From assembly GCA_965234725.1 (NCBI GenBank), contig CBDDUX010000059.1, positions 1 through 41,165 of the forward strand: a stretch of 41,165 nucleotides of DNA. Direction: 5' to 3'. The position numbers and the translations under genes are program-made. The notes beneath the pieces were generated by a model. The model worked only from the letters and a program-made list of their open reading frames with translations, searched no databases and was not told the origin of the DNA. Below, piece by piece: positions 32,293 through 33,033 of this stretch. How positions within the stretch are numbered: position 1 is the stretch's first letter; every line of letters begins with the position of its first letter. The DNA is from Thermoplasmatota archaeon (GTDB lineage Archaea > Thermoplasmatota > Penumbrarchaeia > Penumbrarchaeales > Penumbrarchaeaceae).

Positions 32293-33033
32293 TCAGAGCA
32301 TTCCCGAAGCAAGCAAGAGGAATATAGCCACAAGGAAGCCGAATATTGCCATGGTCTCTGACATTACAGCGAATATCACTCCCTGGCCGAAAACCTTATT
32401 GTTCCTCCCAAAAGCAGCCGCTGCGGCAGAGGCGGTCATACCCTGGGGGATTGCGGAAACGCTGGAAAAGGCGATCACAATCCCAATAGCTAATGCCCCC
32501 CACCCAACAAAGGGTTGTTTAAGGATCGCAAATTCTGGTCCTCCCGTAAGACCGGTAAAGTTCAGGACCAGAATGGATATCAGGAGACCATAGATCCCCT
32601 GGGTCATTGGGAGAGCTTGGTATACTATCAATCTTCCGAACTTATCAGGTCTCTCAGCTGCAACTCCGGTAGCTCCGGCTCCTGCTATCCCAATACCGAT
32701 AGAAGACGTGATAGCTGCAACACCCATTGCCAACGCGACCCCGATAAAGACAAGCATCCGATTCTCCTTGACAACAAGGGAATCCTCCTGATTGTCTGGA
32801 TCAGTGTATTCCAGATACTCTCTTATGTTCGTCATTCCATCTTCATCTTTATCCTCGTTCGCATCGTTGGTGGAATTATCCAATCCATTGGCAGACTCCC
32901 AATCATCATCCATTCCATCTCGATCGATGTCCAGATAGGGCGTCCTGTCAGCTGACGCGTGGCTTGCAACTGCCACCAATGCGATCAAGGTCAAAGCAAT
33001 GACCCCGATAGCTATCTTTGGGTATCTCTTCAT
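32293..33033 (-). CDS. atpK: A-type ATP synthase subunit K (two-hairpin c subunit) with signal peptide and DxDxDG acidic domain
   Basis: SSIGIGIAG, ALPMTQGIYG, IPQG, VMSETMAIFG; ATG 33033 follows GGAGGG. Confidence 0.92.
   Translation of the reverse strand: MKRYPKIAIGVIALTLIALVAVASHASADRTPYLDIDRDGMDDDWESANGLDNSTNDANEDKDEDGMTNIREYLEYTDPDNQEDSLVVKENRMLVFIGVALAMGVAAITSSIGIGIAGAGATGVAAERPDKFGRLIVYQALPMTQGIYGLLISILVLNFTGLTGGPEFAILKQPFVGWGALAIGIVIAFSSVSAIPQGMTASAAAAAFGRNNKVFGQGVIFAVMSETMAIFGFLVAIFLLLASGML

Follow-up and report, generated by a model that had tools for sequence, protein, structure and literature searches.

Can a rotor subunit of an ATP synthase carry a folded domain on the outer face of the cell and, if so, for what purpose? 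This question is raised by atpK, the c/K proteolipid gene found in a contig of a Thermoplasmatota archaeon (CBDDUX010000059.1, assembly GCA_965234725.1), whose 41,165 nucleotides were analysed as a whole and are referred to here as the window. Read in a single frame, atpK specifies a signal-peptide-like leader, an acidic module with two DxDxDG..E loops, and the proteolipid itself (Table 1). This architecture had been proposed in an original prediction made from the DNA letters, which placed leader and module at positions 32782-33033 (residues 1-84), and it was borne out by translation and Pfam searches. The comparisons described below suggest that AtpK is a V/A-type K proteolipid to which a leader and a folded module have been added, and no account of such a fused module was found in the open-access literature searched. 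It is directly established that one gene encodes leader, module and proteolipid, that the module is conserved as protein, and that it has paralogs in the same genome; we infer in addition export, cleavage, retention, Ca2+ binding, ring number and function. We give a little better than an even chance to a reading in which an exported collar of Ca2+ loops is retained on the rotor ring, as one instance of a general membrane-surface cassette. If true, the presence of a folded, soluble domain on each c subunit would represent a new design of rotary ATPase, an enzyme whose ring subunits are usually treated as minimal hairpins.

Spread and conservation of the fusion

Exactly one K match was found in 36 of the 37 genomes of the same class (the exception, G020, is 62% complete), and 31 of these 36 carry the fusion, as judged by a match that starts at query residue 35 or earlier. 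Beyond the class genomes, a protein search returned approximately 59 other 90%-identity clusters that share the pattern of AtpK (233-280 residues, 80-100% query coverage, 45-98% identity), together with shorter K relatives of about 190 and about 160 residues. The five class genomes with K and no module differ at the same end of the protein. Three of them (G031, G035 and G027; loci L113, L114 and L116) encode the leader followed by an unrelated polar extension of about 55 residues that contains 'QFGQ' and N-x-S/T sites, one encodes the leader followed by a short acidic tail, and the last has no extension. In these comparisons the N-terminal region of K on the outside gives the impression of being a hot spot of evolution. 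At L033:3082-3429 (genome G010) the module pair is doubled, placing four loops before the proteolipid.

Selection was estimated on 22 family sequences. Since the full set of pairs was too diverged at silent sites (module pS 0.82), the ratio of non-synonymous to synonymous substitution rates (dN/dS) was taken from 23 close pairs with at least 85% protein identity, which are not independent of one another, and amounted to 0.073 in the module and 0.145 in the linker, with the extremes at 0.014 in the c part and 0.34 in the leader. These values indicate that the module is under purifying selection. A GGAG or GAGG motif lies at -17 to -4 of the script-chosen start codon in 18 of the 22 family sequences; in the other four, the script-chosen start is possibly a few codons too far upstream.

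The leader

The leader of AtpK opens with MKRYPK, continues into a hydrophobic core and ends in ASHASA, with the small residues at -3 and -1 provided by A26-S27-A28 (ASA, followed by DR), and hence displays, together with its positive n-region, the complete pattern of a Sec-type signal peptide. AlphaFold2 (AF2) predicts a helix at residues 5-25. The pattern was then sought in K records from metagenome-assembled genomes (MAGs) of uncultured Thermoplasmatota, Thermoplasmata or Thermoplasmatales, where K frames were recovered at 79 of 92 loci (the 13 dropped did not fit the motif), giving 68 unique sequences. By a crude rule of our own, which asks for a positively charged start, then a hydrophobic core, then small residues ahead of a polar stretch, a tripartite leader is present in 67 of these. 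The unique sequences comprise 28 with leader and module and 40 in which only 12-25 residues, most of them acidic, separate the leader from helix 1 (for example ASA followed by QEE; K genes L041-L091, from Thermoplasmatota MAGs). The leader on K therefore appears to be widespread in Thermoplasmatota and older than the module. In a quick tree of the c part, 26 of the 28 module rows fall into one group (support 88 in the Shimodaira-Hasegawa-like approximate likelihood ratio test, SH-aLRT), with 38 leader-only rows as its sister group, and the K module may have had a single origin.

A divergent candidate for an archaeal-type signal peptidase I is encoded in the genome (G000:C18:20361-21407, L126). 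It is the ortholog (80.5% identity) of a weak match in a relative and carries the motifs SGSM, HR and GDDN, which we take to be the signal peptidase I boxes. This sole candidate has roughly double the usual length, owing much of its sequence to a large insert that separates the catalytic boxes.

The acidic two-loop module

Between the leader and helix 1 the protein is strongly acidic, with 22 D/E versus 6 K/R in residues 29-92. The two loops, DIDRDGMDDDWE and DKDEDGMTNIRE, both present the EF-hand ligand pattern (positions 1, 3, 5, 9 and 12, with Gly at 6), the respective sets being D35, D37, D39, G40, D43 and E46 in loop 1 and D61, D63, D65, G66, N69 and E72 in loop 2. All residues of the second set are invariant in the 22 family sequences, as are D35, D37, D39, G40, M41, D42, D43, W45 and E46 of loop 1. 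Loop 2 is followed by YLEYTDPDNQED and then by the two ATP-synt_C hairpins, and the acidic stretch that holds both loops ends in YLEYTDPDNQEDS.

In the full-length AF2 model (mean predicted local distance difference test score, pLDDT, 89.0; predicted template-modelling score, pTM, 0.74) the module reaches a pLDDT of 90-93 and helix 1 runs from residue 86, while the best model of the module on its own has a pLDDT of 90.3. Both types of model show the same succession of loop and short helix, twice. The helices are short exiting ones (43-48 and 69-74), and no entering helix precedes either loop in the AF2 models, so that the helix-loop-helix arrangement of a canonical EF-hand was not found. A profile of 46 modules gave weak EF-hand matches in the PDB at E of about 1e-3 (8fns, lanmodulin-like; lanmodulin 6mi5; Bap 7c7r; calcineurin B), and a wide VIA fold search returned 4 chains with Z>=2, the best being the Ca2+ region of Bap (Z 3.4, root mean square deviation 3.5, 51 residues aligned). 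Dockerin was considered as a duplicated Ca2+ loop module of comparable size. No dockerin family appeared among the Pfam matches of the K N-terminus and the paralogs or among the fold matches, where a weak match could be missed, and the Pfam matches of the K N-terminus and paralogs likewise included no eukaryotic thrombospondin type-3 (TSP3) repeat family. The module is probably best described as two DxDxDG/EF-hand-like loops in tandem, of the bacterial TSP3 kind, which by its own score belongs to no curated family.

The region between the loops contains a candidate N-glycosylation site (Table 1). At least one N-x-S/T is present in the outside N-terminal part of 26 of the 28 module-bearing K sequences, versus 15.1 expected from shuffles of the same residues, and in 19 of the 40 leader-only K sequences, versus 8.3 expected; as the sequences are related, this excess is a hint only. 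A homolog of STT3/AglB is encoded in the genome (G000:C24:22964-24187). The open frame that contains the STT3 (AglB-like) match has 2538 residues, a length out of the ordinary for an oligosaccharyltransferase.

The proteolipid part and its ion site

PF00137 matches AtpK in two stretches (E 3e-28, 98.3 bits versus a cut-off of 24), and these are the only PF00137 matches in the genome, which is 97.65% complete; atpK is thus its sole c-subunit gene. The best solved relative is NtpK of Enterococcus hirae (2bl2; E 1.7e-15, query 88-241 on chain 6-154). In this alignment, against which the numbering was checked, L141, T144, Q145, Q197 and E226 of AtpK correspond to L61, T64, Q65, Q110 and E139 of NtpK, which we take to be its Na+-binding residues. 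With this NtpK-like ligand set, the ion site of AtpK looks like the Na+ type. E226, in hairpin 2, is invariant in 88 aligned sequences, as are T144, Q145 and Q197, and hairpin 1 has M143 at the carboxylate position, where single-hairpin subunits carry E. Since the carboxylate of hairpin 1 has been lost and E226 alone is left, AtpK is a duplicated four-helix subunit of the 16-kDa type, with one ion site per four helices. The two hairpins of the original prediction were thus recovered, and its 'two-hairpin c subunit' is to be corrected to this duplicated type.

The equivalogs named 'V-type ATP synthase subunit K' in NCBIfam match residues 91-241 only, with best scores below their curated cut-offs (121.8 bits versus 211, and 102.2 versus 108); for this reason AtpK is a divergent K, outside the named equivalogs. 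The N-terminus of NtpK corresponds to about residue 83 of AtpK, and the excess is made up of the 28-residue leader and a module of about 55 residues. Longer fused forms comprise 10 proteins of 448-1049 residues with PF00137 as sole precomputed domain, which, from the precomputed domains only, are read as multi-hairpin fusions and not as fusions to an outside domain.

The module as a juxtamembrane cassette

The module is not confined to AtpK. A profile built from 26 K modules detected 33 stop-to-stop frames in the genome at E<=1e-3, K and 32 others, and in 26 of the 33, K included, the last module ends at most 35 residues before a 19-residue hydrophobic window. Most of these are large frames of 900-3400 residues with an anchor helix at the C-terminus: one hydrophobic stretch is located close to the start, another comes after the module, and K/R-rich residues succeed it. 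In a few other membrane proteins the module is found at the N-terminal end, with a hydrophobic helix immediately after it. One of them, encoded at L128 (G000:C47:27811-28887; 359 residues), has a leader and two module pairs, then a single membrane helix, and carries winged-helix DNA-binding domains (HVO_0163_N, MarR) in its cytoplasmic part. By its appearance this is a helix-turn-helix (HTH) regulator bound to the membrane, with the cassette as its only outside part, and it may be a cation sensor.

The paralogs also bear on the identity of the module, which had been called 'thrombospondin type-3-like' in the original prediction. Among 20 paralog regions, PF18884 (bacterial TSP3 repeat) matches 17 at E<=1 and 13 at E<=0.001, with 8 over the 25-bit cut-off, and one K homolog (P0052) carries a precomputed PF18884. 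The K module is thus related to PF18884 members while itself staying under threshold, so that the label finds indirect backing in the paralogs of the genome and none in a Pfam match of the K module. Taken together, these similarities suggest that the module is a general juxtamembrane cassette, not specific to ATP synthase. Because the same cassette is found on many membrane-anchored proteins and on an HTH regulator, a shared membrane-surface role seems more likely than an ATP-synthase-specific one.

A retained collar on the rotor ring

In the proposed model, atpK would be translated from the upstream ATG as a pre-protein, and a Sec-type leader would carry its N-terminus across the membrane, probably to be cut after ASA28. 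The mature four-helix subunit would keep the 58-residue module outside, joined to helix 1 by the conserved linker; each EF-hand/DxDxDG-type loop would be expected to hold one Ca2+, and the module would probably bear one N-glycan. In a hairpin c subunit the two termini point to the side opposite the catalytic head, and the K/R-rich loops ERPDKFGR and GRNNK of AtpK fit the cytoplasmic side, with the acidic module on the outside. On these grounds the module would lie outside, in agreement with the outside-facing N-terminus of the original prediction. Subunit c of Escherichia coli is inserted by a YidC-only route (PMC9360617); the long, very acidic N-terminal part of AtpK would not be expected to cross in this way, which would explain the cleavable leader.

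Since atpK is the only c-subunit gene, every rotor subunit would bear one module. With about 10 subunits, as in the K10 ring of E. hirae, a collar of about 10 modules and about 20 cation sites would rotate with the ring, and it would be placed at the outer mouth because helix 1 of NtpK is an inner-ring helix. The cassette itself would act as a Ca2+-stiffened, negatively charged and glycan-bearing pedestal that rests on the membrane from the outside. On the ring, it would most likely cap and stabilise the outer rim and fit the ring into a crowded, acidic cell surface. A general role for the cassette is probable, as it is shared with unrelated surface proteins.

Several results weigh against this model. 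The K module and N-terminus matched no Pfam family even at E<=10, a single-sequence PDB search with the K module gave only a chance match (E 3.9), and Foldseek with the module model returned nothing at E<=0.001 (top match, the Ca2+ region of Bap, E 3.4). Four of the five module-only models have a pLDDT of 72.8-85.3, and the fold matches of the module are weak (best Z 3.4), with no fold family assignable. Regarding export, searches of the genome for signal peptidase I with TIGR02228, PF00717 and PF10502 gave no match, and the divergent candidate lies below the cut-off of TIGR02228 (E 1.8e-7, 31.1 bits versus 51.85). The leader rule is a crude one and, like the detection of helices in the module paralogs, of our own making, and the family sequences are relatives whose counts are not independent. 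According to PMC4350412, the ordinary 8-kDa AtpK of Methanosarcina mazei keeps an acetylated N-terminus, and by that example a cleaved leader would not be the norm for archaeal K. Furthermore, it is just as possible that a second processing site lies in the conserved linker, and cleavage, retention, Ca2+ binding and glycosylation are all predicted from sequences and models.

Alternative explanations

A second processing site is central to an alternative that we regard as unlikely, in which leader and module form a pro-domain that serves targeting, insertion or assembly, for example by forcing Sec-dependent insertion or by holding the subunits together during ring assembly, and is then removed at the linker, leaving an ordinary K ring at work. 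The linker residues D84, S85, V88, N91 and R92, invariant in 22 of 22 sequences, would fit such a site, and in relatives a leader with a short tail suffices (40 of 68 unique sequences). Ordinary c subunits moreover need no such domain, as exemplified by M. mazei AtpK (PMC4350412). However, the module is a permanent part of the paralogous surface proteins, located just before the anchor helix, and AF2 helix 1 is continuous from residue 86. The two module pairs of L033 and the different 55-residue extension of other relatives look like variation of a displayed part, and no candidate protease is known.

Improbable to a similar degree is a retained collar with an enzyme-specific job, whereby the collar, with a net charge of about -16 per subunit, would gather Na+ or H+ where they enter the channel from outside, or would tune or brake rotation according to its Ca2+ occupancy. 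Cation concentration and Ca2+ sensitivity were among the roles suggested in the original prediction, next to plugging or stabilising the ring; they may apply here, and the L128 regulator lends them some weight. The excess of 22 D/E over 6 K/R in residues 29-92, the Na+-type appearance of the ion site and the sensor-like placement of the cassette in the L128 regulator, as its only outside part, are all in line with such a cation antenna or regulator. Nevertheless, the occurrence of the cassette on many unrelated surface proteins makes an enzyme-specific role unneeded, sister lineages have an unrelated polar extension or a short tail instead, and Ca2+ in the sites would neutralise part of the charge.

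It is rather improbable that the leader stays uncleaved as a fifth transmembrane helix with its N-terminus inside, like helix 1 of the eukaryotic subunit c''. The module would then form the outside loop that connects helix 0 to helix 1, and the ring lumen, which in rings of the K10 type (2BL2 geometry) is wide and could accommodate additional helices, would be filled by them. The long hydrophobic stretch, with its AF2 helix at 5-25, and the standard signal peptidase I searches of the genome, which gave no match, would agree with this arrangement. Against it, the small -3/-1 residues and the acidic stretch are retained even between very divergent leaders whose remaining positions drift, the dN/dS of the leader is 0.34 versus 0.014 for the true helices, and a divergent signal peptidase I candidate exists.

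Turning from the enzyme to the cassette as such, it is very unlikely, in our estimation, that the cassette is a Ca2+-dependent docking element tying membrane proteins of this lineage into a common outer-surface lattice. If this were the case, the lattice would keep the c ring fastened to the cell surface, or block it at high external Ca2+; the 'rotor' would then be static while stator and head turn, or the ATP synthase would possess a brake controlled from outside.

Scarcely any weight is given to a start at the internal Met93 (MLVFIG), with the upstream part not made, which the original prediction had named as an outcome that would overturn it. An AGGAG does stand 6 nucleotides upstream of the ATG at 32755-32757; however, it simply represents the K-E codons of the linker. 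The position is M in 13 of the 22 family sequences, 9 have no start codon there, and a start codon combined with GGAG/GAGG occurs in 4. Met93 as sole start was rejected, given its poor conservation and the purifying selection upstream of it (dN/dS 0.073, with invariant loop residues). A minor leaderless product may arise from Met93 in the 4 of 22 genomes with AGGAG and ATG (32755-32768 in the window), and the two forms could occur side by side in this genus. An assembly or binning artefact joining a surface-protein fragment to atpK, an error also foreseen in the original prediction, was rejected as having a negligible chance, for although the many module paralogs could in principle mislead an assembler, the in-frame fusion recurs in 31 genomes that were assembled separately, and dozens of metagenome contigs of several origins have it too; its divergence is graded, and the tree agrees with the c part.

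Relation to known systems

Among the open-access papers and preprints searched, none was found on a c/K subunit with an outside domain, on a leader of an archaeal c subunit, or on the cassette or a loop pair directly before a membrane helix. Nothing relevant to the fusion was found in PMC3543383, PMC4154653, PMC6336850, PMC9360617 or PMC3403918. The closest counterparts of the proteolipid are devoid of the N-terminal additions. NtpK, from the Na+ V-type K10 ring of E. hirae (2BL2), is like AtpK a duplicated four-helix proteolipid with one carboxylate, but it has neither leader nor outside module. The A-type enzymes of Thermococcales (Pyrococcus furiosus type) have 16-kDa c subunits with a duplicated hairpin and one ion site, as AtpK has, and Thermococcaceae relatives of about 160 residues appeared in the search (P0094); unlike AtpK, they show no N-terminal extension. 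Subunit c of the F-type enzyme of Aquifex aeolicus reportedly has a cleaved signal peptide, and would thus share with AtpK an export leader on a rotor subunit. That enzyme is, however, bacterial, and its leader precedes the hairpin alone, with no folded domain.

Additional mass on the outer side of a ring has a parallel in the c ring of eukaryotic V-ATPases, whose luminal glycoprotein parts ATP6AP1/Ac45, ATP6AP2 and yeast Voa1 place protein and glycan on the non-cytoplasmic face and turn with the ring. In contrast to the AtpK module, these are separate subunits present once per ring, with helices inside it, they possess no Ca2+ loops, and they are unrelated in sequence. Tandem D-x-D-x-D-G-x-x-D/N-x-x-E loops are shared by PF18884 members, the Bap B domain (7C7R), the Ca2+ domain of binary-toxin B and lanmodulin. 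The K module scores below every Pfam threshold and, unlike these TSP3/Bap-type loops, lies directly before a membrane helix.

A collar of this kind would raise the questions of how the outer mouth of a wide K ring is sealed, of whether this c subunit enters the membrane via Sec, with a leader that is cut off, and not as a bare hairpin, and of whether external Ca2+ or glycans can act on the rotor. The job of a shared juxtamembrane Ca2+ cassette on the surface of uncultured archaea is a further one. As a natural outside handle on the rotor, the module could also be of use in rotation experiments, for labelling the ring or for holding it in place.

Genomic context

The gene belongs to an A-type ATP synthase operon that Pfam matches resolve in the order H-I-K-E-C-F-A, at 28398-35474 of the window on the minus strand, and its place between atpI and atpE is the one expected for a subunit K/c gene. 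The features of the locus are compiled in Table 1.

Table 1. Features of atpK and of the surrounding atp genes, in window positions.
Feature	Positions	Strand	Remarks
atpK (c/K proteolipid), coding sequence and stop codon	32293..33033	minus	246 residues; codons 33033-32296 translated
Signal-peptide-like leader, residues 1-28	32950..33033	minus	K2 R3 K6, hydrophobic core, ASHASA then DR
Acidic two-loop module, residues 29-86	32776..32949	minus	58 residues; dN/dS 0.073; pLDDT 90-93
Loop 1, D35-E46 (DIDRDGMDDDWE)	32896..32931	minus	12-residue EF-hand/DxDxDG-type loop
Candidate N-glycosylation site between loops, N-x-T sequon N53-S54-T55	32869..32877	minus	N53 in 18/22, T55 in 16/22
Loop 2, D61-E72 (DKDEDGMTNIRE)	32818..32853	minus	12-residue DxDxDG-type loop
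Conserved linker VVKENRM, residues 87-93, entering helix 1	32755..32775	minus	V88, N91 and R92 invariant
Four-helix proteolipid, residues 94-246	32296..32754	minus	two ATP-synt_C hairpins
Shine-Dalgarno-like GGAGG	33042..33046 (plus-strand numbering)	minus	8 nucleotides 5' of the atpK ATG at 33033-33031
atpH-like, peripheral stalk subunit	35151..35474	minus	weak V-ATPase_G matches, under curated cut-off
atpI (stator a/I subunit)	33096..35138	minus	directly upstream of atpK; PF01496, E 2.2e-23
atpE	31663-32271	minus	Pfam matches of the atpE-C-F-A stretch (28398..32271): PF01991, PF01992, PF01990, PF00006
atpC	30541-31650	minus	downstream of atpK
atpF	30197-30541	minus	downstream of atpK
atpA	28398-30170	minus	last gene of the atp row

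The atp row ends after atpA, where a gene with a response-regulator receiver domain follows (27924-28337). A second ATP-synt_ab match, presumably atpB, lies on a different contig (G000:C19:8290-8946), and the operon appears to be split. Directly upstream of the row there is a frame with a transposase-type HTH (HTH_Tnp_1, 35760-36074), beyond which the thiamine genes Thi4, ThiD2/TMP-TENI and ThiC are located (36370-39460). Large frames with Big_5, CarboxypepD_reg or fn3 domains occur at 19874-23110, 23192-26869 and 5089-9570; none of them contains the cassette, and the frame at 23192-26869 has zinc ribbons at its end. Finally, a defence-like gene at 14790-16538 combines DUF2326 with the CTD10 domain of ABC-three-component systems.

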